From a virus (taxonomy: Duplodnaviria; Heunggongvirae; Uroviricota; Caudoviricetes): 51,064 bases of DNA. The position numbers and the translations under genes are program-made. Positions within the stretch are counted from its first letter, which is position 1. Each line of letters begins with the position of its first letter. The stretch is from the IMG/VR virus record IMGVR_UViG_2534681675_000014; one strand, 5' to 3'. The notes beneath the pieces were generated by a model. It was not told where the DNA came from and made no database searches. It saw only the letters and a program-made list of their open reading frames with translations. Positions 1,985 to 23,639 of this stretch are shown in pieces.

Positions 1985-2794
1985 TTATTCCTCTGAATTA
2001 TCGATTACACTGTATTCCCCGGTTAATACAGAGGAATCTGCAGGATCGATTGTCAGTGGTTCCTTTTCATCCATTGATACTGCACGCTGGATCTCAATTG
2101 ATACGGGCAGATATTTGAACAGGCGACGAATAGCCGTTTTCTTTGCCATTTCTTCCCAGTGAGTTACCCACGGCCCGTTATTACCAGCTTTACTCAGGCT
2201 GCGCACCAGCTCAATCTGTTTGCGCGTCATAACTTCAAACTGAGTACCTCCGTCTTTAAGTCTTGCGACAGCATAGACGTGGGTAACCGGGGCATCTTCG
2301 TTTTCTCCCGGGCGGTGTATTAACTTTTCATCAAGGCCAAATTCGAAGCTAAACTCGTCACCTTCACGGACAACACGGGCTGACAGGCTGGCGATTTGAC
2401 CAGAACGGCGAGCCAGATCAATCATGCCGCGATAGCCAATGATTAGCTGAACGTTCTTTTTACCGCTCTTTTCGTTTTTATTACCAAAAGGCAGTAAATA
2501 TGCATGACCGAGGGCGCTACCTGGCTCAAGTCCGAGCTGTGAACACTGTACGATCGCACTGACAAAACTCATAGTGTCACAGTTTCCTAACGCCGGAACT
2601 TTACGAATTTCTGTGGTGGCGATACGGATCATACGTTCAGCCGTCATATGGCGTGGAAGAGCTGCTGCCAGTTGCTCTTTCATTGATGGCTGGTTAATAA
2701 AACTAATCACGTCGCTATTTTTAACTGCTGCTGGTGCACGGTTTCCCTGAGTTTTTTGCAGATCGGCTTTTGCGATTGGTGGTTGCTTAGTCAT
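1985..2794 (-). CDS. recT: RecT single-strand annealing recombinase
   Basis: 269-aa product from internal Met [13 protein letters not shown]... recalled as RecT; start overlaps recE stop by 8 nt. Confidence 0.9.
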
Positions 2795-5387
2795 TTGCAT
2801 ATTCCTTAGCCCTGCGGGGCAGTGATAATGTCTTAATAGCTGGCCATTCATCGGTATTCAGGCAGTCAGACAGGGTTCGCAGATTGCGGTGATATTCCTG
2901 TTGACCTGCCAGTTTTGCTTCTTCGCCCATCATGAAAATTTCAACCGGATAACGTCCGCACTCAATAGTTGTGCTGGCAACCAGAAAAACGAAAGTTGGC
3001 TGCACTCCAAACTGTGCTTCATAACCGTCACTGTAGAATGCATCCTGAACGTGATAGCGGTAGTCGTAATAAGCGGTTTTGAATCGTTGAATATCCGCCG
3101 TAGTTTTCACGTCCATGATCCAGTGAAATTCAGGGATAATTTTGTCCGGACGGCACCGACACAAAATTCCTGTTTCAGGATCTTCCCAGTAAATTGATGA
3201 TTCAGCGTGTCCGGCGCTTTCAACAAGCCATTGCCCCAGCGGCAAAGCCATAACGCTTTGATACATGAGTTCAATTTTCCGGCCTTCTTCCGCAGTGATA
3301 ACTGTTTTTCCTGTGCTTGCGCATTCCATCAGAAACGCTTTCTCTTCTTCTTTTCCGGCGTTTGTACGGCGGTTAAATTCAGGTGCTACGATAAAGCGGT
3401 TACTGAATTCTTCCGGTTCAAGTACCCGGCAGTGGAAAGCGGTTCCTAAATCGAGCGTTTTTGTCTTTGTGGTGTCCACGGGGGCATTTTTACGCCACAA
3501 ATATAGTGCCGGAGTATCAGCAATGTCATCGAGCTGAGACTTACTGACACCGGGACCCGCGTGGTAATTCTCATTCGAAATTCCGTAATAAATACCTGGC
3601 TCTATGTCTTCTACGATTACGGGATCTGCGACTTCGCCAGTTTCATCACTGCAATCGCGATGCGGATCGCTGCCAGCATTCTCATTGTGCGGATGTTCAG
3701 CGCCTTCCATTTCCTCCGGATCATTTTCCTTAGCTTCAACCTGACTCTCTTCATCGAATGTTTCCTGGTATGTTGCGTCGCCCATCACCGCACCACAGTC
3801 AGGGCAGTTATCCCCGCCAGTCTGGCCGCAGGCATTGCAGGCTATTTCCGGTTCCTGTTGCACTACTGGCTCAGGTTGATTCATATCCGGGCTGGTTTTT
3901 TCCGTTTCTGGCTGGTTCTGGTACACACAATTGCGAGTCTGGATCCCCTTTACCCATTTCGGATCGTTCGGGTCGCTAATTCCGTCAACAAATTCACCAC
4001 GTGATGCAGCAAGCAATTTATCGGCATCGACAGGATCTTTTGATGGAATGTTTTTCCGGGCTTCATGGAGTTCTGCCCGCAGTTCCTGATATTTCGCATC
4101 AACAGAATTTACCTGTGACTGAGCATCCAGCGGCTGCGTGTCCTGATGATGTTCAGTTGCGTCCGGTTCCATTGTTTCAGCCTCTCCCTGTTCAACTGCC
4201 GTTGTTCCAGATGGTTGCGGTTTTTCTTCATCATCCTGTTTTCCTTCTTCTGTTACTCGCTGCGGCATCGGGGCAGAGGAGCGACCGCAGGCAATATCCA
4301 CGATTTCCGGATCAGGGTTGGCATGATCGGTTTCAGTCAGTACTTTGTTCAGATATTCAGTGACGTGCGCGGGGATGACCTCGATCCCAATTGGTGCTTC
4401 TTTTACGGACGCAACCACGATGGCGCGGGAATAATCCAGCCCGCCAGGCATGGTGATGAATTTGTCGCGGAAAACAGAAAAGGGCGGTTTATTTTCAGCG
4501 ATAATTTCCTCAATGCGTTTAGCGTGTGCCGGATGAAGGTTATAGATGTCCAGATCCATTGAACGGGCCAGTACGCCAGTGGCTACGTCGCGCGCCAGTG
4601 ACGTCAGATCGTGTACGAAACCTTCGCCGCGATCGGTGAGGTTTCCGCCGCCAGCATTAGCACCGGAAGCCGTGCGAGTGATGTGTGAAACACGATTACC
4701 CTTCATCCACTCTTTTGTCAGCAGTCCTCGATCGGTGTAGTCAGCGTTCAGGTATGCTTCGAAAAAAGCAGTTATCAGTCCCAGGTTTGAATTACCAGGA
4801 TTAGGGAAAACTTTGTCAGTGTCACGAACCAGTTTGTGGAGTTCGCGAATTTCCAGCGGGTCGAGCAGGCTGGTTTTGTGGGAAACAGCCAGGGCAGTAA
4901 CAGCCGGTAGTTCTTCAGCCCGAGCAATGTGTAATGCCTGGAGTCCTTCGCGTGAAACGTGCGTTACCGGTTTTTCGCTGCCGTGTTGAGCAAGCCAACG
5001 AATGGGCAGTTCCTGGCCAGAAATTGGGAGTAGCATATTCTCCTCAATCTCAGTCATGTCTTCGCCGTTGACGTTGGTATTGCCTTGATAGTGAGCGTTG
5101 TCTGGTGCTGCTCCCGGTTTTAGTTCCCATGTCATGGAGTCTTTGCTGAGTTGATAGCGTTCACTCCAGGTAAAATCGATCTCACCTTCAGCGGGCAGGT
5201 CATTAACGACAGGAAAATTCGTGGCAACAGCTTTAAAATAGCTGCTCAGTTTTTTACCTGACTTAACGATCAGGTAGTCCAGAGTGGCACTGGTCGATTC
5301 AAAATCGTTGCTTGCCCACAGGACGACGTCAGGTTCACCGGATGATTTTTTCGCTTTCCGTAACAGGAAGAGTGGTTTTGTGCTCAT
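2787..5387 (-). CDS. recE: RecE exonuclease VIII
   Basis: 866-aa ORF, sequence recalled as Rac RecE; recE-recT order. Confidence 0.9.
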
Positions 5388-11408: not shown

Positions 11409-11505
11409 TTAAATTTAGCACTGTTAAAAATTTAATCCTTAACCGGAGGGATTTCTGCACCCTCAGAACATCAGGAGGCCGCCTGAAAGGGCGGTGGAGA
11501 TAATA

Positions 11506-12027
11506 ATGGGAATAACTAAAGAACGATTGTTGGAAATAGCAAACCTTAGTGATTGGGCATTAAGTGATGAGAGAATTATTTCTCCTCATGCTTATGAGTC
11601 AGTTACAAGTATAGAAATAACAACAATGGCTAGAATGCTGCTTGGTTATTTCAAAATAGAAAATAAAAAACAGATGGATAGTAATGTTGATATATGTGAG
11701 ATTTTAGACGATTGGGGGGCTTGGGTTGTGGCTGGTAATAGTTCTATTGATTGGCAGGAAATAGCTGATAAATATAAAAATGTTGTTCCTCATGGTAAAA
11801 AATCACGTCGTCAGTGCAGCAATGATGAAGGGCGAGTTATTGACATTAGTATCCTTAGGTTAGAAAGATATAAGCAACAAGAATATGAGTTAATTGTTGC
11901 TCATTTTGTGATTGGTTTATCTCTTCGTGCTATTGCAAAGCAACAAGGATGTTCAGATGGAACAATTCGTAAAAGATTGCAAAAAGCCTTAGGTTTTTTG
12001 ACTGGATATATAGCAATTACCAGTTAA
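11506..12027 (+). CDS. Q-family antiterminator-like protein (QuuD/933W-Q-like), paralog 1
   Basis: 173 aa from ATG 11506 (GGTGGAG SD); motifs DDWGAWVV, KSRRQCSNDEG, LIVAHFVIGLSLRAIAKQQGCSDGTIRKRLQKA align with recalled DLP12 QuuD sequence. Confidence 0.6.
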   Translation: MGITKERLLEIANLSDWALSDERIISPHAYESVTSIEITTMARMLLGYFKIENKKQMDSNVDICEILDDWGAWVVAGNSSIDWQEIADKYKNVVPHGKKSRRQCSNDEGRVIDISILRLERYKQQEYELIVAHFVIGLSLRAIAKQQGCSDGTIRKRLQKALGFLTGYIAITS

Positions 12028-12665
12028 GAGTCAGCGGGTTTTTTACCAGTGTAATGGTATAAGGATACTCCCATGTGTCTTACATGATATGGAAGCGCTG
12101 TTGCTGGATGCTTTGTGATACTCTTAAAGCGGAGGGGAGAGCCTTCCGCTTCAATTTCTGCGTCCGAAACGGTCGTAGAGAAAAATTCTTTCCATTCATT
12201 GAATTTTACTGCTGATTTGTCAGACTTTATATAAATTAGAATTCCTCCATGATCGTCACGTGACGTACCCGTGCCGTAACGTTCGGTTAGCTGAATCCAG
12301 CCATTATGAATAGATTTGGGGCCTCTCCATAATTTTGCTTCACCGATCCATTCGAATTTTCCGAATTGATGTTTAACTAATAAATCAACGTGACCGCCAT
12401 GTTGAGTATCATGTTCAACATCATAAAACCTACCTTTCAGGAAATTTTTGATCGACGCTGTTAGCTCGTCCTCTCCCCACTTAGCATCTTGATAGAAGTG
12501 TTTGTCATTTTCTAAATTCTGAATAGCGTCGTCTAAATCTTCATAGAGTTGCTTTACAAAAATATTTTTGTCTGCAGCTAATTTTCTTTGAACCATTCCC
12601 CTAAATTCAGGATCCATTCTAATTAATGATTGAAGGTCTGCAGTACAGATGTTTACATCACTCAT
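12024..12665 (-). CDS. Hypothetical protein with PD-(D/E)xK-like nuclease motif (213 aa), operon gene 3
   Basis: ATG 12665 with GGAGAG SD; motif GHVDLLV...FEWIGEAK; stop overlaps the Q-paralog-1 stop; AT-rich. Confidence 0.55.
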   Translation of the reverse strand: MSDVNICTADLQSLIRMDPEFRGMVQRKLAADKNIFVKQLYEDLDDAIQNLENDKHFYQDAKWGEDELTASIKNFLKGRFYDVEHDTQHGGHVDLLVKHQFGKFEWIGEAKLWRGPKSIHNGWIQLTERYGTGTSRDDHGGILIYIKSDKSAVKFNEWKEFFSTTVSDAEIEAEGSPLRFKSITKHPATALPYHVRHMGVSLYHYTGKKPADS

Positions 12666-13086
12666 GCAGACTCTCCAAAAGACTCGAAGGAGTAAAGTAT
12701 GGATAAAGATACTGGCTAAAATTATCAACCAATTCGCCAGTTTCTGGATGGTAAAAACTTCCTGTGTCTAAAGCATAGGAAATAAGATCATCTTCAACTG
12801 GTATTGGTTCTTCCGTTAAATTATCAATGTATTGAAAATGCATATCCAATAGATGTGCTTTATAGCTAGATAAATAATCAGTTGCTTTTATTAGCAGGAT
12901 ATAGTCATCTTTCGTATCAGTTAGATAGGTCAAACCATTGATAAGGGTTTTGTATGTAAAGTGATTGATATTTTTAGCATCTTTACTAACCAGAAAAAGA
13001 AAAAGATCACGACACACACTGCGAACAGGATCATTAAAATCCTGCTCTATTTGCGTGATAATGTCGTGATATATACTCTTTTTCAT
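12658..13086 (-). CDS. Hypothetical acidic protein (142 aa), operon gene 2
   Basis: ATG overlaps upstream gene stop (ATGA at 13083..13086); stop 2 nt before gene 3 start; AT-rich. Confidence 0.5.
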   Translation of the reverse strand: MKKSIYHDIITQIEQDFNDPVRSVCRDLFLFLVSKDAKNINHFTYKTLINGLTYLTDTKDDYILLIKATDYLSSYKAHLLDMHFQYIDNLTEEPIPVEDDLISYALDTGSFYHPETGELVDNFSQYLYPYFTPSSLLESLHE

Positions 13087-14174
13087 TTATGGCCTGATGA
13101 TCTCGCTCTTCTTTTCTCTTCACAGGACTTAACAGAATCCAATATTTTTTCAACAATAAATATAATCGAATCAATGTTGTTACAGTTCTTCGCAATTGCC
13201 TCATGCAACCTAATTCTAGGATTATCAAGCATTGTCCTTTTCCCTGGTAATATTAACTCTACTGATAAAATATGTGAAGAACTTTGTGGTAAATCCCAAA
13301 TTTTTCCCAACTTAAACTTTGTCAATATTGGGCTTGCGGACTCTCCACTATGATGGTAAACATCTTGACGCAAACACTTTTGACTTGGTTTGAGTTTTAA
13401 AGAACTTGTATTGCCATCTGAGGTGATAAAAGATACATGAGAAATTCTGCCATCTACTTTCTCGTAAAGATCTTGTATTGAACCAAATAATTCAAGAGGA
13501 TTGTTTAAAATAACGCCAGCTTCTTTTTTTATAAAATTAGCCACAAGGTATTGTTGAGGCTGTGATTCACTTCTTGGAAGGATAGATAAATCAATCGTAA
13601 GAATTAATATTTTTTCTGCAGGCATTAGCATGATGGTATTAAAGCATTGCGTGACTTGGCGTGTTTTGCATTTTATTTCTCCACCATTAGCACGTAATTC
13701 CATACCCGCATCGCTAAGATGTGTTGGGTCAAGCTCTATCACTTCAGTGTAATACGCTTTGGATAAAAAAACAGCAGTGTCAATTTGTTTATCACGAATG
13801 ATATCTTGACGTAGTTCAGCAAAATGCAGCTCAGTATCAGCAACTAACAGCTCCTCTCTGGATAAAGGAGTTGGGTATTTTTCTGAGAAGGGGCTATTGT
13901 CCTTTTTCTGATTTGTGAAAATTGTTTGTAATTTTGCTACGTCTTCATCGGTGATTCTATAAATAGAAAGTAATCGATTCCCGCTAAAAATTAAACCTTT
14001 CCAGAAATCGTCGATTCTGTCTTTTAGGTCGGGATTATGCTGAACTACACTATTTACACGTTCAATAAAAAGGGGTAATCCTTGGGCCGTTACACCCAGT
14101 GATGAACCAAGAAGCTTACGGGTGTTGCGCCAGCCAAAGCGTGAATTGATGTTTTTTACTGTTTGCTCAAGCAT
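13083..14174 (-). CDS. Hypothetical protein (363 aa), operon gene 1
   Basis: ATG 14174 preceded by AAGGAAG SD (ORF track alternative GTG at 14180); AT-rich; no family recognised. Confidence 0.55.
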   Translation of the reverse strand: MLEQTVKNINSRFGWRNTRKLLGSSLGVTAQGLPLFIERVNSVVQHNPDLKDRIDDFWKGLIFSGNRLLSIYRITDEDVAKLQTIFTNQKKDNSPFSEKYPTPLSREELLVADTELHFAELRQDIIRDKQIDTAVFLSKAYYTEVIELDPTHLSDAGMELRANGGEIKCKTRQVTQCFNTIMLMPAEKILILTIDLSILPRSESQPQQYLVANFIKKEAGVILNNPLELFGSIQDLYEKVDGRISHVSFITSDGNTSSLKLKPSQKCLRQDVYHHSGESASPILTKFKLGKIWDLPQSSSHILSVELILPGKRTMLDNPRIRLHEAIAKNCNNIDSIIFIVEKILDSVKSCEEKRRARSSGHK

Positions 14175-14462
14175 TAACACTTCCTTAATTTTCCCTTAAC
14201 AATTTAGGGTGCTAAACTTTTTTGCGCAGTTTACACAAAAAAATAGTGCGTACGCAAAAACTATCTAACATGATGAGCTTTAACCGGGAAACTTGTATAT
14301 GTTGTGAGCATAAAGTTGGCTGAGAAATCTAAAACGGGTAGAATGACTGCGGGTGCTTGAGGCTATCTGCCTCGGGCATGAACACCAAAGGCAGATAGAG
14401 AAAAGCCCCAGTTAACATTACGCGTCCTGCAAGACGCTTAACATTAATCTGAGGCCAATTTC

Positions 14463-15744: not shown

Positions 15745-16034
15745 TGGTGGATTTACGTAAAGCGGCGCGGGGGCAGATGTGCACCGTCAGAATTCCTGGC
15801 TACTGCAATCACGATCCGGAAACGTCTGTGCTGGCGCATTACCGACTGGCGGGAACGTGCGGAATAACGACAAAACCACACGATATGCAGGCGGCGATTG
15901 CCTGTAGCTCATGCCACGATCTAATCGACGGGCGGGTAAAAACCAGCGATTACACCAAAGAAGAATTACGCCTGATGCATGCAGAAGGTGTTTTTCGCAC
16001 ACAAGAAATCTGGAGAAAGGAGGGATATTTGTGA
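15744..16034 (+). CDS. YbcO-like Cys/His-rich nin-region protein (putative nuclease)
   Basis: 96 aa; Cys/His pattern CTVRIPGYCNH...CSSCHD; length and position match DLP12 YbcO as recalled. Confidence 0.6.
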   Translation: MVDLRKAARGQMCTVRIPGYCNHDPETSVLAHYRLAGTCGITTKPHDMQAAIACSSCHDLIDGRVKTSDYTKEELRLMHAEGVFRTQEIWRKEGYL

Positions 16035-16573
16035 TTTACCCAACGAATACAGGAAAAAGCGGAGAACACCTTCGTCTCGCCACGCTGGAAAGTGTCTGGA
16101 TTCAGGGCAAACTGCGTATGTGGGGGCGCTGGTCGTATATTGGCGGTGGCAGGTCAGGAAATATGTTCAATCAGTTGTTGGCATCCCAAAAATTGACGAA
16201 AACAGCCATCAATGAAGCCCTGCGCAGAATGAAAAAAGCGGGAATAGAGAAAGCTGAGCTGGAAGCGTTTTTGAGAGAGATGATCAACGGCAAGCAAAAG
16301 AGCTGGCTGGCGCATTGTACTGATGCAGAGGCGTTATGTATTGATCGAGTCATAAGTGAGGTGCTGGCAGAGCATCCAGGATTGATTTGCATTCTCCGGC
16401 AACGCTATGAAGGGCGGGGGATGACTAAGCGTAAAATGGCTGAATTGCTACATGATGCACACCCAGAGTGGTGTTTTAGCACATGCGAAAAACGGATTGC
16501 TAATTGGTTAGCTGTTGCTGAGTATGTCCTATATATTCCCATGCGTGAATCATTTGCTGAGAAAATGGCTTGA
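16031..16573 (+). CDS. Q-family late-gene antiterminator, paralog 2 (likely the functional late activator)
   Basis: GTG 16031 overlapping upstream stop (GTGA), AGGAGGG SD; WGRW motif and Q-like C-terminus; followed by a strong terminator about 85 bp downstream. Confidence 0.55.
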   Translation: MIYPTNTGKSGEHLRLATLESVWIQGKLRMWGRWSYIGGGRSGNMFNQLLASQKLTKTAINEALRRMKKAGIEKAELEAFLREMINGKQKSWLAHCTDAEALCIDRVISEVLAEHPGLICILRQRYEGRGMTKRKMAELLHDAHPEWCFSTCEKRIANWLAVAEYVLYIPMRESFAEKMA

Positions 16574-17432: not shown

Positions 17433-17545
17433 TTGTGAATAAAGGAAGTATATAAGTAACCGCGTACGTTATTAATTCTATTGCTCTATGCCTGTGACGG
17501 ATATTGATTTTGGTCAATTCATCTGTAATGAGTGGTTATTTACGA

Positions 17546-17572
17546 TAAAAAATAGCTCCCCGGAAGAGGAGC
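17546..17572 (-). terminator. Minus-strand terminator-like hairpin 4
   Basis: gctcc/ggagc stem with A-run on plus strand. Confidence 0.35.
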
Positions 17573-17822
17573 CCGTGAAAATTCATGGTGAGAAGAACAA
17601 GGATTTACAAAAGATTCCGACAGACAAAGAATCGTAGGTATTTTATGAGGCGATATTGGTTTTGTGGTGATTTATATCAATATCTTGATGGTTTCTTGAA
17701 TGCTTGATGGCTAATTATAATTATGCATATTAAATGATTATTATTGTTTTCATATAGAAATAAGTAGCATCCTTGATATAGTAACAGCACAACTCGAATT
17801 TTCTTTCACTGGGAGACTATTT

Positions 17823-18080
17823 ATGCACTCACACCATCATCAAATATCTATGAGCCAACTTACCATGAGTTCACCCATTAAAGGTTTTTCACTGTATGTA
17901 GAAAGCGAAGACGTGGCTGTCGCGATAGCTGAACTTGAAAAGGCCTTATCACAGCTCAGGAACGGAGATAAGGCATTCAAAGAAAGTGGTACGCTGGTTG
18001 GTAACGTCAGAGCAAGTTATTGCTATCCTTACCGCCCCCATTGTGTCGCGAAAGGTCTTTATTGGGATGAAGGGGATTAA
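17823..18080 (+). CDS. Hypothetical protein (85 aa)
   Basis: ATG with GGGAGA SD; convergent with the 170-aa gene and overlapping its stop. Confidence 0.4.
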   Translation: MHSHHHQISMSQLTMSSPIKGFSLYVESEDVAVAIAELEKALSQLRNGDKAFKESGTLVGNVRASYCYPYRPHCVAKGLYWDEGD

Positions 18081-18589
18081 GCAAGGACTTGTTCACCGAT
18101 AGTTACTGGTAGCGGACAAATGTATTCCCAGACTGGATCAGGGTTAAAGGTTTTACCTGCCCAGTAAAGTTCCATTCTGTAGGTGAATTCCAGTACTGAT
18201 GTATCATTTCTTAATAATGACATATCTCCGCGATGATAACTATCTGTTTGTATTATGAAGATTTTATCAGATGGTTTCCCGTCTGTAAGTCGAAAATGTT
18301 TAGCCTCCTCCAGGTTACCCCATGCGAAGAGTGACGTATAGCGAGAAGGTTTTTGCGGGTAAACTCCTCTTCGGTAAAACTCTAACCCCCAGTCGATGAA
18401 TTCGTTTTTATTATAAATTTTTGCCGCATTGTTAATAAGGTATCCCTCGCCATGTGGTGCAAGCCCGCACGGAAAAAGTTTGTCTACCAGAGATGACATT
18501 TCGACAGGACTTATATCGGAGAATCGCTTTGGTGTAACAATATCGCCAGTTGAGTATATTCCTCGGCGATCAACCAAAAATAGTTCCAT
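18077..18589 (-). CDS. Hypothetical protein (170 aa), cargo gene in the Q-to-lysis region
   Basis: ATG with GGAGAAA SD; minus strand, opposite to late transcription; AT-rich. Confidence 0.5.
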   Translation of the reverse strand: MELFLVDRRGIYSTGDIVTPKRFSDISPVEMSSLVDKLFPCGLAPHGEGYLINNAAKIYNKNEFIDWGLEFYRRGVYPQKPSRYTSLFAWGNLEEAKHFRLTDGKPSDKIFIIQTDSYHRGDMSLLRNDTSVLEFTYRMELYWAGKTFNPDPVWEYICPLPVTIGEQVLA

Positions 18590-18782
18590 TCATTTTCTCC
18601 ATTGATAGTTGTTACTTTTGGCGATGTAACGATATCAAGTGCGAGGTTATGCCGCCAGATTCTTAATCTGGTACTTCATCAGGCCCTTGCATGTACTAGG
18701 GCTTTTTCATTGTCAGGCTACGGATAACATCTCTGACTTCTTGTTAGTAAATCTGAGAGCCTGGACCCTACTGGATTTGCCC

Positions 18783-19688
18783 CTATATTTCCAGACATCT
18801 GTTATCACTTAACCCATTACAAGCCCGCTGCCGCAGATATTCCCGTGGCGAGCGATAACCCAGCGCACTATGCGGATGCCATTCGTTATAATGCTCGAAC
18901 GCCTCTGCAAGGTTCTTTGCTGCCGTTAACCCGTCTGGTTTGGGCATGATACTGATGTAGTCACGCTTTATCGTTTTCACGAAGCTCTCTGCTATTCCGT
19001 TACTCTCCGGACTCCGCACCGCCGTGTTCTTCGGTTCAAGTCCCAACATCCGGGCGAACTGGCGTGTTTCATTAGCCCGGTAGCATGAACCATTATCCGT
19101 CAGCCACTCCACTGGAGACGACGGAAGATCGTTGCCGAAGCGGCGTTCCACCGCTCCCAGCATGACGTCCTGTACTGTTTCACTGTTGAAGCCGCCAGTA
19201 GTCACCGCCCAGTGCAGTGCCTCACGATCACAGCAGTCCAGCGCGAACGTGACACGCAGTCTCTCTCCGTTATCACAGCAGAACTCGAACCCGTCAGAGC
19301 ACCATCGCTGATTGCTTTCTTTCACGGCCACTCTGCCTGTATGTGCCCGTTTCGATGGCGGTACAGCAGGTTTTCGCTCAAGCAACAGCGCATTCTGGCG
19401 CATGATCCGGTAAACACGTTTGGCATTGATCGCAGGCATACCATCAAGTTCTGCCTGTCTGCGAAGCAGCGCCCATACCCGACGATAACCATACGTGGGC
19501 AGCTCTCCGATAACATGGTGTATACGGAGAAGCACATCCGTATCATCAGTGTGACGACTGCGGCGGCCATCCATCCAGTCATCGGTTCGTCTGAGAATGA
19601 CGTGCAACTGCGCACGCGACACCCGGAGACAACGGCTGACTAAGCTTACTCCCCATCCCCGGGCAATAAGGGCGCGTGCGCTATCCAC
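18783..19688 (-). CDS. insD: IS2 transposase OrfB (InsD)
   Basis: 301 aa, recalled as IS2 InsD. Confidence 0.9.
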
Positions 19689-20011
19689 TTTTTTGCCCGT
19701 CCATATTCAACGGCTTCTTTGAGGAGTTCATTTTCCATCGTTTTCTTGCCGAGCAGGCGCTGGAGTTCTTTAATCTGCTTCATGGCGGCAGCAAGTTCAG
19801 AGGCAGGAACAACCTGTTCTCCGGCGGCGACAGCAGTAAGACTTCCTTCCTGGTATTGCTTACGCCAGAGAAATAACTGGCTGGCTGCTACACCATGTTG
19901 CCGGGCAACGAGGGAGACCGTCATCCCCGGTTCAAAGCTCTGCTGAACAATTGCGATCTTTTCCTGTGTGGTACGCCGTCTGCGTTTCTCCGGCCCTAAG
20001 ACATCAATCAT
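19646..20011 (-). CDS. insC: IS2 OrfA (InsC)
   Basis: 121 aa from [18 protein letters not shown]...; overlaps insD as expected for the InsCD frameshift fusion. Confidence 0.85.
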
Positions 20012-20141
20012 CTGTTCTCCAATGACTAGTCTAAAAACTAGTATTAAGACTATCACTTATTTAAGTGATACTGGTTGTCTGGAGATTCAGGGGGCCAGTC
20101 TACCTACGTTTAGCACCATCCGAATTCTCGGAGGTGAGGCT

Positions 20142-20357
20142 ATGAAATCCATGGACAAGTTAACAACGGGCATTGCCTACGGCACCTCCGCAGGCAGTGC
20201 TGGATACTGGTTTTTACAGTGGCTGGATCAGGTCAGTCCGTCACAGTGGGCTGCAATTGGTGTGCTGGGAAGTCTGGTTCTGGGCTTTTTGACTTATCTG
20301 ACAAATCTGTACTTCAAAATCAGAGAAGACAGAAGAAAGGCTGCGAGAGGAGAGTAA
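20142..20357 (+). CDS. Class II holin (phage 21 S21-type pinholin)
   Basis: 71 aa [30 protein letters not shown]...; dual-start Met1/Met4; GGAGGTGAGG SD. Confidence 0.85.
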
Positions 20358-20361
20358 TATA

Positions 20362-20706
20362 ATGACCCAAGACTATGAACTGATTGTGAAAGGGATCCGC
20401 AATTTTGAGAATAAAGTTGCGGTAACTGTAGCATTACAAGACAAAAAACGCTTTGACGGTGAAATTTTTGACCTGGACATCTCGCTGGACCGTGTTGAAG
20501 GTGCTGCGCTGGAGTTTTATGAGGCTGCAGCCAGAAGGAGCATCAGACAGGTCTTCCTGGATGTTGCTGCCGGGTTATGTGAAGGGGATGAGCAGTCACC
20601 GGAAAAGCGCCCCGTAATTTTAGAGGCGCAGAATGTGTGGATAACCTACAAAGGAAAGCTACCAGGAAGAATTACTGATTTTCTGAAGACTCCACCGAAA
20701 TGGTAA
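20362..20706 (+). CDS. Hypothetical protein (114 aa) between holin and endolysin
   Basis: ATG 5 nt after holin stop, GAGAGGAGAG SD; no family recognised. Confidence 0.5.
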   Translation: MTQDYELIVKGIRNFENKVAVTVALQDKKRFDGEIFDLDISLDRVEGAALEFYEAAARRSIRQVFLDVAAGLCEGDEQSPEKRPVILEAQNVWITYKGKLPGRITDFLKTPPKW

Positions 20707-20944
20707 TTTTACCAGCATATTTTTCTTCCAGTAATGTCGCCAGCCACTTAAAAGAATTTTGTTGTTCCTGGGACCATTTGGGGTTGCGTGATTCAAGCAG
20801 GAGCGATGCCAGTGTTGGTTGCATTTGTTCTCTGGGAATTGATAAGGCCAGATATGAAAATGCAACAGTGAGGGCATTTACATCATCCCGAAGCCTGGAA
20901 ATGCAGTCGAGCAACTCCTGTAGAGAAATGGTGTTATTGTCCAT
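20672..20944 (-). CDS. Hypothetical protein (90 aa), antisense gene within the lysis cassette
   Basis: ATG with AAGAGGA SD; 3-prime end overlaps the 114-aa gene by 35 nt. Confidence 0.45.
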   Translation of the reverse strand: MDNNTISLQELLDCISRLRDDVNALTVAFSYLALSIPREQMQPTLASLLLESRNPKWSQEQQNSFKWLATLLEEKYAGKITISVESSENQ

Positions 20945-21049
20945 AAATAATCCTCTTGATTGTATTTACCTTTTCCCCGCCTGATTCAACAGGCCGGGGC
21001 AGATAAACATATCCAGGGTTCAGAAACCGATAAATCCTGATAAATATCC

Positions 21050-21583
21050 ATGAACGCAAAAATCAAATACGGCCTGTCAGCGGCCGTTCTGGCGCTGATT
21101 GGAGCAGGCGCATCTGCTCCTGAGATACTTGACCAGTTTCTGGATGAAAAAGAGGGTAACCACACTACGGCATACCGCGATGGTTCCGGCATATGGACCA
21201 TCTGTCGCGGTGCCACGATAGTAGATGGTAAACCTGTTATTCCGGGCATGACACTGACGAAGGAAAAATGCGATCAGGTTAATGCCATTGAGCGTGATAA
21301 GGCGCTGGCATGGGTGGATCGCAATATTAAAGTAACACTGACCGAACCACAAAAAGCGGGTATCGCGTCATTTTGTCCCTATAACATTGGCCCCGCTAAG
21401 TGTTTTCCGTCGACATTTTATAAGCGGCTGAATGCAGGTGATCGTAAAGGTGCCTGCGAGGCGATTCGCTGGTGGATTAAGGACAGGGGGCGCGATTGCC
21501 GCCTTCGTTCAAATAACTGTTACGGTCAGGTTATTCGTCGTGATCAGGAGAGCGCATTAGCCTGTTGGGGGATAGAGCAGTGA
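21050..21583 (+). CDS. SAR endolysin (lysozyme-type, R21-like)
   Basis: 177 aa; hydrophobic N-terminal signal-anchor-release segment; lysozyme-like core; between holin and Rz. Confidence 0.8.
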
Positions 21584-22044
21584 GCAGAGTTGCCGTGATT
21601 ATTTATGCTCTGGTTATCTGCATCATCGTCTGCCTGTCATGGGCTGTTAATCATTACCGTGATAATGCCATTACCTACAAAGCGCAACGCGATAATGTGA
21701 CGGAAAAACTCAACCAGGCGACCGCAATCATTACTGACATGCAGATACGCCAGCGTGATGTTGCTGCACTCGATGCAAAATACCTGAAGGAGTTAGCTGA
21801 TGCGAAAGCTGAAAATGATGCTCTGCGTGATGATGTTGCCGCTGGTCGTCGTCGGTTGCGCATCAAAGCAGTCTGTCAGTCAGTGCGTGAAGCCACCGCC
21901 ACCTCCAGCGTGGATAATGCAGTCTCCCCCAGACTGGCAGACACCGCTGAACGGGATTATTTCACCCTCCGGGAACGACTGGTAATGATGCAGGCCCAAC
22001 TTGAAGGTGCTCAGCAATACATAACCGAACAGTGTTTAAAGTAA
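21580..22044 (+). CDS. rzpR: Rz i-spanin
   Basis: GTG overlapping endolysin stop; N-terminal TM segment, coiled-coil region, contains Rz1 in the +1 frame. Confidence 0.8.
21800..21985 (+). CDS. rzoR: Rz1 o-spanin lipoprotein (embedded in Rz)
   Basis: 61 aa; lipobox LVVVGC then proline-rich PPPPPAW; fully nested in Rz in another frame. Confidence 0.8.
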
Positions 22045-22181
22045 AATCTTAACTACAATATGATTCATTTTGATGATTGTTTCATAAGGAACAGTGAAGT
22101 AAGATCTAAGAGGAGTTAAATTTTATACAGTATAATCATAATATTGCAGCAAGGTGGTTATAATTGAAAGAATATTTAGAT

Positions 22182-23639
22182 ATGAATACATCTCATGTAA
22201 GAGTTGTTACTCATATGTGTGGGTTCCTGGTTTGGCTCTATAGTCTTTCAATGTTGCCACCAATGGTTGTAGCATTGTTTTATAAAGAAAAAAGCCTGTT
22301 CGTTTTCTTTATAACTTTCGTTATATTTTTTTGCATTGGTGGCGGAGCGTGGTATACAACTAAGAAATCTGGCATTCAATTACGTACCCGTGATGGGTTT
22401 ATTATAATTGTAATGTTTTGGATTTTGTTTTCTGTTATTAGTGCATTCCCTTTATGGATTGACTCAGAACTTAATTTAACGTTCATTGATGCTCTGTTTG
22501 AAGGGGTTTCTGGAATAACAACAACAGGAGCAACTGTAATTGATGATGTTAGTTCATTACCTCGGGCATATTTGTACTATCGGTCACAGTTAAATTTTAT
22601 AGGTGGTTTAGGAGTTATTGTTCTGGCGGTTGCAGTATTGCCATTATTGGGTATTGGTGGTGCAAAGCTTTATCAGTCAGAAATGCCGGGGCCATTTAAG
22701 GATGACAAACTCACTCCCCGCCTGGCCGATACGTCACGGACACTGTGGATAACTTATTCTTTATTAGGTATTGCTTGTATTGTCTGTTATAGACTTGCAG
22801 GAATGCCTTTGTTTGATGCTATTTGTCACGGGATTTCCACAGTTTCGCTTGGTGGTTTCTCAACTCATAGCGAGAGTATCGGATATTTTAATAACTATTT
22901 GGTTGAGCTGGTGGCTGGTGCTTTTTCCCTGCTATCGGCTTTCAACTTTACTCTTTGGTATATTGTTATTAGCAGAAAAACGATAAAACCTTTAATCAGA
23001 GATATTGAACTTCGTTTCTTTCTGTTAATAGCCTTAGGGGTGATCATTGTTACCTCTTTCCAGGTCTGGCATATAGGTATGTATGACTTGCATGGAAGTT
23101 TTATTCATTCGTTTTTTCTTGCCAGCTCCATGCTCACTGATAATGGTTTAGCTACGCAGGATTATGCAAACTGGCCCACGCACACGATAGTGTTTTTGCT
23201 GTTGTCAAGTTTCTTTGGGGGATGTATAGGTTCAACCTGTGGTGGAATTAAGTCACTTCGATTTCTTATACTTTTCAAACAAAGCAAACACGAGATAAAT
23301 CAACTTTCTCATCCCAGAGCGTTGTTGAGTGTAAATGTAGGAGGGAAGATAGTTACAGATCGTGTAATGAGGTCTGTATGGAGTTTCTTTTTTCTTTATA
23401 CTCTCTTCACGGTGTTTTTTATACTGGTGTTAAATGGTATGGGATATGATTTTCTTACATCATTTGCAACAGTGGCTGCATGTATTAATAATATGGGATT
23501 AGGTTTTGGGGCTACTGCATCGTCATTCGGAGTGCTTAATGACATTGCAAAATATTTAATGTGCATAGCTATGATTCTTGGTCGCCTTGAAATTTATCCT
23601 GTTATTATATTGTTTTCAGGTTTTTTTTGGCGCTCCTAA
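22182..23639 (+). CDS. trkG: TrkG potassium uptake protein (Trk/Ktr family membrane protein)
   Basis: 485 aa from MNTSHVRVVTHMCGF..., recalled as Rac TrkG; AT-rich; ORF track offers a TTG start at 22164 with AAGGTGG SD. Confidence 0.9.
   Translation: MNTSHVRVVTHMCGFLVWLYSLSMLPPMVVALFYKEKSLFVFFITFVIFFCIGGGAWYTTKKSGIQLRTRDGFIIIVMFWILFSVISAFPLWIDSELNLTFIDALFEGVSGITTTGATVIDDVSSLPRAYLYYRSQLNFIGGLGVIVLAVAVLPLLGIGGAKLYQSEMPGPFKDDKLTPRLADTSRTLWITYSLLGIACIVCYRLAGMPLFDAICHGISTVSLGGFSTHSESIGYFNNYLVELVAGAFSLLSAFNFTLWYIVISRKTIKPLIRDIELRFFLLIALGVIIVTSFQVWHIGMYDLHGSFIHSFFLASSMLTDNGLATQDYANWPTHTIVFLLLSSFFGGCIGSTCGGIKSLRFLILFKQSKHEINQLSHPRALLSVNVGGKIVTDRVMRSVWSFFFLYTLFTVFFILVLNGMGYDFLTSFATVAACINNMGLGFGATASSFGVLNDIAKYLMCIAMILGRLEIYPVIILFSGFFWRS

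Follow-up and report, generated by a model that had tools for sequence, protein, structure and literature searches.

A YdfR-family gene and an optional, reverse-oriented gene between holin and endolysin in the lysis cassette of a Rac-type E. coli prophage

Organization of the lysis cassette

We analyzed a stretch of viral DNA of 51,064 nucleotides (hereafter, the window), which corresponds to a Rac-type prophage of Escherichia coli, as determined from its synteny with E. coli T-HYM1. The genes are arranged in the order intR, xisR, ralR, recET, kilR, sieB, racR, ydaS/T, lysis genes, trkG, terminase, and head and tail genes. The lysis regions of the two are 100% identical, and the T-HYM1 locus is annotated in RefSeq as class II holin, YdfR family protein, hypothetical protein and lysozyme.

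The first gene of the cassette encodes a class II (phage 21 S-type) holin of 71 aa (positions 20142–20357, plus strand; Pfam Phage_holin_2_1, E = 2.2e-35), which carries the dual start motif MKSM (MKSMDKL...) and one strongly hydrophobic 19-aa window (KD 1.72). It is followed on the same strand by a YdfR-family (DUF1327) gene of 114 aa (20362–20706; Pfam PF07041, E = 9.5e-44). The ATG of this gene at position 20362 lies 4 nt after the holin stop codon, and a purine-rich, Shine–Dalgarno-like sequence, GAGAGGAGAG (20345–20354, plus strand), is located 7 nt upstream of this ATG, within the last codons of the holin gene. A previous interpretation of this locus, made from the sequence alone (hereafter, the sequence-only reading), had placed the gene 5 nt after the holin stop with a strong Shine–Dalgarno (SD) sequence; the purine-rich sequence is indeed present, but the gap is 4 nt.

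On the minus strand, a 90-aa accessory gene (20672–20944; PHROG 2411, E = 4.9e-57) is preceded by the SD sequence AAGAGGA (20951–20957, minus strand) at a distance of 6 nt from its ATG. Among five aligned copies of this gene, the GAGGA core of the SD sequence is invariant, and the two leading bases vary. The 114-aa and 90-aa ORFs, both confirmed in the ORF list and in the raw sequence, are convergent and overlap by 35 nt (20672–20706). The start codon of the 90-aa gene is separated by 105 nt from that of a lysozyme-family endolysin of 177 aa (21050–21583, plus strand; Pfam Phage_lysozyme, E = 9e-24), whose Gly/Ala-rich hydrophobic N-terminus (hydrophobic window at residue 9, KD 1.67) is of the signal-anchor-release type. 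The cassette ends with an Rz spanin gene (21565–22044, plus strand; Pfam Phage_lysis, E = 1.3e-48), in which an Rz1-type lipoprotein ORF is embedded (21800–21985, plus strand), as determined from the ORF list and from the RefSeq annotation of rzoD in the identical T-HYM1 locus. With regard to the two ORFs, the AAGAGGA sequence, the 35-nt overlap and an endolysin about 100 bp further on, the layout given by the sequence-only reading was confirmed.

In phage 21, the endolysin gene directly follows the holin gene. The cassette of the window resembles that of phage 21 (S21-R21-Rz/Rz1, with a pinholin and a signal-anchor-release endolysin), and also essD-rrrD of DLP12, in its Phage_holin_2_1-family holin with a dual start, in the Gly/Ala-rich N-terminal anchor of the lysozyme and in the Rz gene with an embedded Rz1. 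However, the window contains two extra genes between holin and endolysin. In the Qin prophage of E. coli K-12 (essQ-ydfR-rrrQ-rzpQ/rzoQ), the order and the families of the genes are the same as in the window (class II holin, YdfR, lysozyme and spanins), although K-12 YdfR consists of 103 aa with another C-terminal tail, ydfR overlaps rrrQ by 4 nt, and the joint between ydfR and rrrQ lacks a reverse-oriented gene. It is near-certain that the segment represents a standard form, already catalogued, in which lambdoid (phage-21-type) lysis cassettes occur, and that it is carried by a Rac-type prophage. The order of this cassette is S21-type holin, ydfR, an optional reverse-oriented gene, signal-anchor-release type lysozyme and Rz/Rz1.

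The YdfR-family gene

The 114-aa protein, which the sequence-only reading had not recognized, belongs to a named family. It matched the Pfam DUF1327 model with 148 bits (cut-off, 25), with residues 1–112 aligned to positions 1–92 of the 93 model positions, and the identical protein in RefSeq (WP_000189896.1) is named ‘YdfR family protein’. Compared with YdfR of E. coli K-12, residues 1–74 showed 84% identity and 95% positives, whereas the C-terminal tails of the two proteins did not align. The protein accordingly consists of a conserved N-terminal domain (residues 1–74) and a tail, which is of the commonest type and ends in ...KTPPKW. In the AF2 model, which as a whole is of low confidence (pLDDT 58), three strands and a helix were predicted, and the tail was likewise of low confidence. 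The protein is acidic (pI 5.2), its maximum 19-residue hydropathy is 0.84, and the hydropathy scan found neither a membrane segment nor an N-terminal signal.

Sequence searches with the 114-aa protein against Pfam, NCBIfam, PADLOC and the PDB returned nothing informative except DUF1327, and neither this protein nor the 90-aa protein matched a defence-system model of PADLOC-DB at E ≤ 1. The complete five-stranded sheet and the catalytic acidic residues of an RNase H-like fold were not found, and Foldseek searches against viral models gave nothing at E ≤ 0.001. Fold and family searches found no match that would assign a biochemical activity to either protein, and literature searches under DUF1327, Ybl58, the protein accessions and the PHROG ids found nothing functional.

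Of the 5426 complete E. coli genomes searched, 4016 (74%) contained ydfR-like DNA, with up to nine copies per genome. The YdfR family is essentially restricted to Escherichia and Shigella. Seven distinct cassettes were inspected, and in each of them a holin gene was located directly upstream of ydfR: window/T-HYM1, the Qin prophage of K-12, the Rac prophage of E. coli B, the ST131 type (two loci with identical cassettes), an Stx2k prophage, and the phages Chlobot and 689R5. A class II holin gene was also located directly upstream in loci containing a 176-aa form of ydfR. In the window and all other loci inspected, the DUF1327 gene lies between a class II holin gene and a lysozyme gene.

Because ydfR-like DNA is present in such a large number of genomes, the holin-ydfR-endolysin order is a standard form of the cassette and not an anomaly. 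The assumption that an endolysin gene normally comes right after the holin gene is not borne out in E. coli prophages, although direct holin-lysozyme cassettes without ydfR do exist, for example essD-rrrD of DLP12. The arrangement is ordinary, widespread and already catalogued, and K-12 itself holds its core of holin, ydfR and lysozyme. More than a thousand complete E. coli genomes contain it in annotated form, and it carries little weight as a discovery. The sequence-only reading had named one circumstance that would speak against it, namely that the pair is a widespread, already characterized component of lysis cassettes; the first half of this holds, but the second does not. Nevertheless, ydfR, often present in several copies, is among the commonest prophage genes of E. 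coli and is always wired into the lysis operon.

Considering the 4-nt gap after the holin stop and a ribosome binding site that lies within the final codons of the holin, the 114-aa gene is built into the late lysis operon. It is an integral gene of this operon and a member of the YdfR/DUF1327 family, in agreement with the proposal that it is co-expressed with the lysis genes. Its product would be a soluble, acidic cytoplasmic protein that is produced alongside the lysis proteins.

Phage modulators such as T7 gp0.7 and phiKZ Dip bind the catalytic half of RNase E. The only functional data that we found, and the sole lead on the role of YdfR, come from a 2026 report of RNase E binding by the K-12 protein (RNA Biol 2026; PMC13232886). 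In that study, residues 1–72 of YdfR were recovered as a fragment from a two-hybrid screen with RNase G as the bait, and follow-up two-hybrid assays indicated that YdfR binds RNase G and, preferentially, the N-terminal (catalytic) half of RNase E. The conserved N-terminal domain of the 114-aa protein corresponds to this fragment. Rne(1–598) co-purified with Strep-tagged YdfR, and DNase-resistant nucleic acid was present in the eluate, although the authors could not rule out that the RNA came from a contaminant (PMC13232886). Overproduction of YdfR altered few transcripts and caused no growth defect (PMC13232886). K-12 YdfR thus binds Rne(1–597/598) and co-purifies with RNA (PMC13232886). By its binding to this half of RNase E it can be placed beside RapZ, RraA, T7 gp0.7 and phiKZ Dip; we found no sequence or fold relation of YdfR to any of these four. 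The link to RNase E comes from one paper and from overproduced, tagged K-12 YdfR, and the C-terminal tail of the window protein differs from that of K-12.

These data are consistent with the possibility that the N-terminal domain of the 114-aa protein acts late in infection on RNase E, on host RNA decay or on RNA, and that its target is not the membrane or the cell wall.

Antiholins and holin-binding lysis regulators include S21-71, T4 RI and P1 LydB. We also considered the possibility, close to the role of lysis regulator suggested by the sequence-only reading, that the 114-aa protein modulates the timing or efficiency of lysis by acting on the pinholin or the signal-anchor-release endolysin, perhaps as a chaperone or an inhibitor in the cytoplasm. 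That its gene separates holin and endolysin in all the cassettes inspected and is tightly coupled to the holin is in line with such a role, and a screen for leakiness of the cell envelope lists the K-12 ydfR deletion among its hits (supplement of PMC3879167). However, we infer that the resistance cassette could have had a polar effect on the lysozyme gene downstream, to which this phenotype may be due. Moreover, the 114-aa protein contains neither a membrane segment nor a signal peptide; the membrane or periplasmic segment of an antiholin or holin-binder is missing from both proteins, the hydropathy maxima being 0.84 for the 114-aa protein and 0.93 for the 90-aa protein, compared with 1.72 for the holin. 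Searches of PHROG, Pfam and NCBIfam revealed no similarity of the 114-aa or the 90-aa protein to any lysis category, and all their PHROG matches were of ‘unknown function’. The holin already has a dual-start antiholin motif of its own, overproduced K-12 YdfR caused no growth defect (PMC13232886), and some cassettes, such as essD-rrrD, do without ydfR. A role in the regulation of lysis thus appears unlikely, and an action on RNase E or RNA is the reading that we prefer for this protein, although tentatively.

The reverse-oriented gene and the variable ydfR/endolysin joint

Residues 1–90 of the 90-aa protein aligned with model positions 1–90 of PHROG 2411, and the distant members P0186 and P0189 also matched this family; in Pfam, NCBIfam, PADLOC and the PDB, the protein had no match. 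An exhaustive HMMER search revealed full-length relatives with identities down to 28% in Klebsiella, Atlantibacter, Sodalis and Brenneria. We compared five diverged copies of the locus, in which the DNA differed by up to 15%, and found that the 90-aa ORF was intact in all of them.

It could be argued that the minus-strand ORF is not a gene and is merely the shadow of a 94-aa ORF on the plus strand (20700–20984), the ATG of which overlaps the ydfR stop codon. The two frames share wobble positions, and dN/dS was equally low or lower in the plus frame (0.10–0.33) compared with the minus frame (0.20–0.49), values that are uninformative on the coding strand because these wobble positions are common to both frames. 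However, stop codons break the plus frame in two of the five diverged copies, whereas the minus frame is always intact; the minus-strand protein has distant homologues with ORFs of their own elsewhere, a strong ribosome binding site and a confident helical model. The shadow explanation is effectively refuted, and these comparisons indicate that the 90-aa ORF does encode a protein. Together with the 148-bit match of the 114-aa protein to DUF1327, the end-to-end match to PHROG 2411 and the intact minus-strand ORF bear out the view that both ORFs are genuine genes.

In the AF2 model of the 90-aa protein (pLDDT 72.6), four helices were predicted, and residues 80–90 were disordered. These are exactly the last 11 residues, which are encoded by the antisense of the 3΄ end of ydfR. 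The 35-nt overlap may be a by-product of insertion, in which the frame runs on into the ydfR antisense and adds 11 disordered residues. Fold searches returned only generic helical matches. The protein is acidic (pI 4.6) with a maximum 19-residue hydropathy of 0.93; the hydropathy scan identified no membrane segment, and neither a signal peptide nor a lipobox was found, the N-terminus (MDNNTISLQELLD...) being without a hydrophobic leader. The product would be a small, soluble four-helix protein, which most likely binds another protein.

Alignment with phage 689R5 displayed a clean indel of ~290 bp, which extends from the ydfR stop (directly after ...KTPP) to the inside of a GC-rich hairpin (20975–20999) located upstream of the 90-aa gene. 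This optional module (20707–20995) comprises the body of the 90-aa gene and the upstream hairpin. It was found in 1125 of the 5426 complete E. coli genomes; among the 121 phage records matching the cassette, only 3 had it. The Rac prophage of E. coli B contains the cassette of the window, phage Chlobot carries ydfR as well as the 90-aa gene, and in phages of the 689R5 type ydfR alone is present. The joint between ydfR and the endolysin shows at least four states: the 4-nt overlap of ydfR and rrrQ in K-12; a 63-nt spacer without the 90-aa module in phage 689R5; a 343-nt spacer containing the 90-aa gene in the window; and, in 353 genomes, a module of ~515 bp that extends ydfR in frame to 176 aa. 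The last module carries another convergent ORF overlapping ydfR, which encodes 86 aa (PHROG 2572). We examined whether this ORF is a homologue of the 90-aa gene, for which BLASTP and hhalign found nothing. An invertible segment was likewise rejected: the 90-aa protein and the C-terminal extension of the 176–183-aa YdfR forms gave no significant BLASTP alignment. In the Stx2k prophage, the lysis genes located after holin, ydfR and the 90-aa gene are different ones and encode two holins and an M15 peptidase.

We found relatives (28–57% identity) of the 90-aa protein in other settings, none of them with a DUF1327 gene nearby. For example, one is located in reverse orientation between the tail genes L and M of an Atlantibacter prophage, one downstream of an autotransporter on conjugative IncF plasmids, one in the Sodalis ligni chromosome, and one between dinI and bssS in an ENA metagenome assembly, the latter also in a Logan read-set assembly. 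A scan of genome contigs with a profile of the distant relatives confirmed no loci. Because relatives occur in unrelated, non-lysis places without ydfR, the 90-aa gene is an independent unit (a presumed ‘moron’), and not a partner of ydfR or a component of lysis, and it resides in a variable slot at the ydfR/endolysin joint.

This result bears on the idea that the two genes were inserted as a pair, and on the related possibility that their products work together, for example as an effector and its inhibitor. The genes are adjacent and overlapping; every copy of the module seen in E. coli prophages lay beside a ydfR gene ending in ...KTPPKW, and in the Stx2k prophage both genes stay with the holin gene although the endolysin has been exchanged. 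However, genomes with ydfR outnumber those with the module ~3.5-fold (4016 versus 1125), the 90-aa gene has relatives that are not accompanied by any DUF1327 gene, and a recombination joint at the ydfR stop explains the adjacency. A functional pair is therefore very improbable, and the differing distributions, together with the occurrence of the relatives outside lysis contexts, speak against the insertion of the two genes as a pair.

Expression signals and possible role of the reverse-oriented gene

A promoter scan of the window found no consensus σ70 promoter upstream of the 90-aa gene, and scans of the Atlantibacter and plasmid loci found no consensus promoter upstream of its relatives. By eye, a weak candidate can be recognized, consisting of TTGAAT, 19 nt and an invariant TACAAT (20964–20959, minus strand). 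The candidate –35 element TTGAAT sits in the loop of the hairpin at 20975–20999, and a very short leader would result. We computed the folding energy of the 105-nt region upstream of the gene (20945–21049, minus strand), in which this hairpin was found, and obtained –32.5 kcal/mol (z = –2.6 compared with shuffled sequences). No T-run comes after the hairpin on either strand. In an alignment with the ST131-type copy, its stem appeared by eye to be kept with changed pairs. Downstream of the 90-aa gene, ~45 nt from its stop codon and inside the ydfR antisense, folding revealed a weak terminator-like stem-loop (20603–20629, minus strand; 7 bp, a 9-nt loop, then UUUU). The same sequence is also present in ydfR genes without the module, and the stem-loop could therefore be coincidental.

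Morons are accessory genes with their own signals in late operons, often reversed, and lambda bor is one such gene. Bor is a lipoprotein. The 90-aa gene resembles bor and other morons as a small, optional, reverse-oriented unit in or next to the lysis genes, and its Atlantibacter relative is placed in a moron-like manner between tail genes. However, the 90-aa protein differs from Bor in the lack of a signal peptide and a lipobox, and of sequence or fold similarity to any named family. Going by its orientation and by how other morons behave, the 90-aa gene would be transcribed in the lysogen from its own promoter, against the direction of the late operon. That it is separate and oppositely oriented is as expected for expression independent of late transcription, and this much agrees with the sequence-only reading, which had proposed expression in the lysogen.

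An alternative is that the unit acts mainly as an antisense element, with a transcript that runs into ydfR, and perhaps the holin gene, and dampens the leaky expression of lysis genes during lysogeny; the protein would then be secondary. The convergent orientation and the 35-nt overlap are compatible with this, as is the lack of a strong terminator before the weak stem-loop ~45 nt inside ydfR; furthermore, the second, unrelated module at the same site also has a convergent ORF overlapping ydfR. However, the 90-aa protein is conserved across genera and in contexts without nearby lysis genes, its ORF is intact in all copies compared, and the promoter scan found no consensus promoter. A mainly antisense function is accordingly quite improbable, and we favour a moron whose protein product matters.

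We estimate the overall probability of the preferred reading, in which identity, architecture and mechanism are blended, at about 0.6: a standard lysis cassette with a late-operon YdfR protein acting on RNase E or RNA, and an independent reversed gene expressed in the lysogen. The identity and architecture of the cassette are near-certain, and the mechanistic parts are a tentative proposal. The slot behind ydfR would be a convenient place to seek prophage functions expressed in the lysogen.

A bolder extension of this reading is that the ydfR/endolysin joint is a dedicated cargo slot in which small reversed genes, such as those of PHROG 2411 and PHROG 2572, are swapped, these genes being expressed in the lysogen and silenced by incoming late transcription, and that YdfR is a late protein of the phage that blocks the RNase E of the host, or reprograms it, shortly before lysis. 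We regard this extension as speculative and rather unlikely. If true, it would add RNA-decay and lysogen-specific functions to a cassette that has been thought to be purely envelope-disrupting.

Elsewhere in the window, the region 12024–14180 was examined as a possible counterpart of the AAA-ATPase/DUF4435 pair of T-HYM1; the ORFs there had no Pfam or PADLOC match, and the assignment was rejected. An Rfam search of positions 17500–23000 found no RNA families. The window is distinguished from T-HYM1, whose locus is uninterrupted, by an IS2 insertion of 1331 bp (18772–20102, minus strand), which was identified by NCBIfam matches to IS2 TnpA and TnpB and by the T-HYM1 alignment. It is flanked by a 5-bp duplication, CCTAC (18767–18771 and 20103–20107), and it ends 40 nt upstream of the start codon of the holin gene. 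In this window, IS2 may block late transcription of the whole cassette.

Modules at the ydfR/endolysin joint

In an E. coli locus (L018, positions 2501..3353; GCA_002950135.1), and likewise in the compared loci L019 and L020, we found that the joint between ydfR and the endolysin gene is occupied by a different module, in which an in-frame extension brings the ydfR product to 176 aa. The 3' end of this longer ydfR shares 53 nt with an 86-aa ORF (PHROG 2572, with no assigned function) that runs convergently to it. Among 5426 complete E. coli genomes, 353 carry this module. In the Stx2k prophage of E. coli STEC367 (L008, positions 2917..3954), the holin gene, ydfR and the 90-aa gene lead not into the lysozyme gene but into a second and unrelated set of lysis genes, encoding a putative holin, a holin and an M15 metallopeptidase; the changeover point is exactly the lysozyme start codon. 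Some YdfR-family proteins, among them P0133 (196 aa) and P0161 (169 aa), have their N-terminal strands and helix duplicated internally.

Opposite the 90-aa gene, a 94-aa shadow ORF lies on the plus strand (20700..20984); its ATG start codon shares nucleotides with the ydfR stop codon. Its dN/dS values of 0.10-0.33 are spuriously low because the wobble positions are common to the shadow ORF and the 90-aa gene; the shadow ORF is a pitfall for coding-potential tests.

Relatives of the 90-aa protein at other sites

A relative with 36% identity to the 90-aa protein is encoded in an Atlantibacter hermannii prophage (L011, positions 4001..4267), where its gene, inserted in the reverse direction, separates tail genes L and M and is convergent with a 71-aa ORF, with an overlap of 7 nt. 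The style of insertion is the same as that of the 90-aa gene in the window, whereas the position within the late operon is different. We also identified an 89-aa paralogue (57% identity), named Ybl58 in one UniProt entry, on E. coli IncF plasmids (L009, positions 2542..2811; L010, positions 5001..5270). It is located in an AT-rich region downstream of a large autotransporter gene; of the 75 plasmids on which we detected it, 70 are conjugative.

Features upstream of the lysis cassette

A complete IS2 element (18772..20102), with minus-strand genes for TnpA and TnpB, is flanked by a 5-bp target duplication, CCTAC, at 18767-18771 and 20103-20107. It lies between the late promoter and the lysis cassette, with the holin start codon 40 nt downstream of its end, and may silence the cassette or change its expression; the locus in E. 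coli T-HYM1 lacks IS2 and is otherwise identical to the window. Upstream of both IS2 and the holin gene, inspection by eye of the T-HYM1 alignment revealed a terminator-like hairpin on the plus strand (GCCCT...AGGGC followed by TTTTT, ~18680..18710), which may be a late-operon terminator read through by an antiterminator. A reverse-oriented 170-aa ORF just upstream of the cassette (18077..18589, minus strand), whose T-HYM1 counterpart is annotated as "hypothetical" in RefSeq and which had no match in Pfam or PADLOC, is a further moron-like gene.

The prophage contains two Q-like antiterminator genes (11494..12027 and 15911..16573) that differ in type, one being Phage_antitermQ and the other DUF1133. 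Between the first of these and a DUF1367 gene, three consecutive minus-strand ORFs of 365, 142 and 234 aa (12024..14180) had no match in Pfam or PADLOC. T-HYM1 carries an AAA ATPase and a DUF4435 protein at the matching position. This interval looks like a variable slot for cargo or defence, occupied in the window by a cassette of uncharacterised ORFs.
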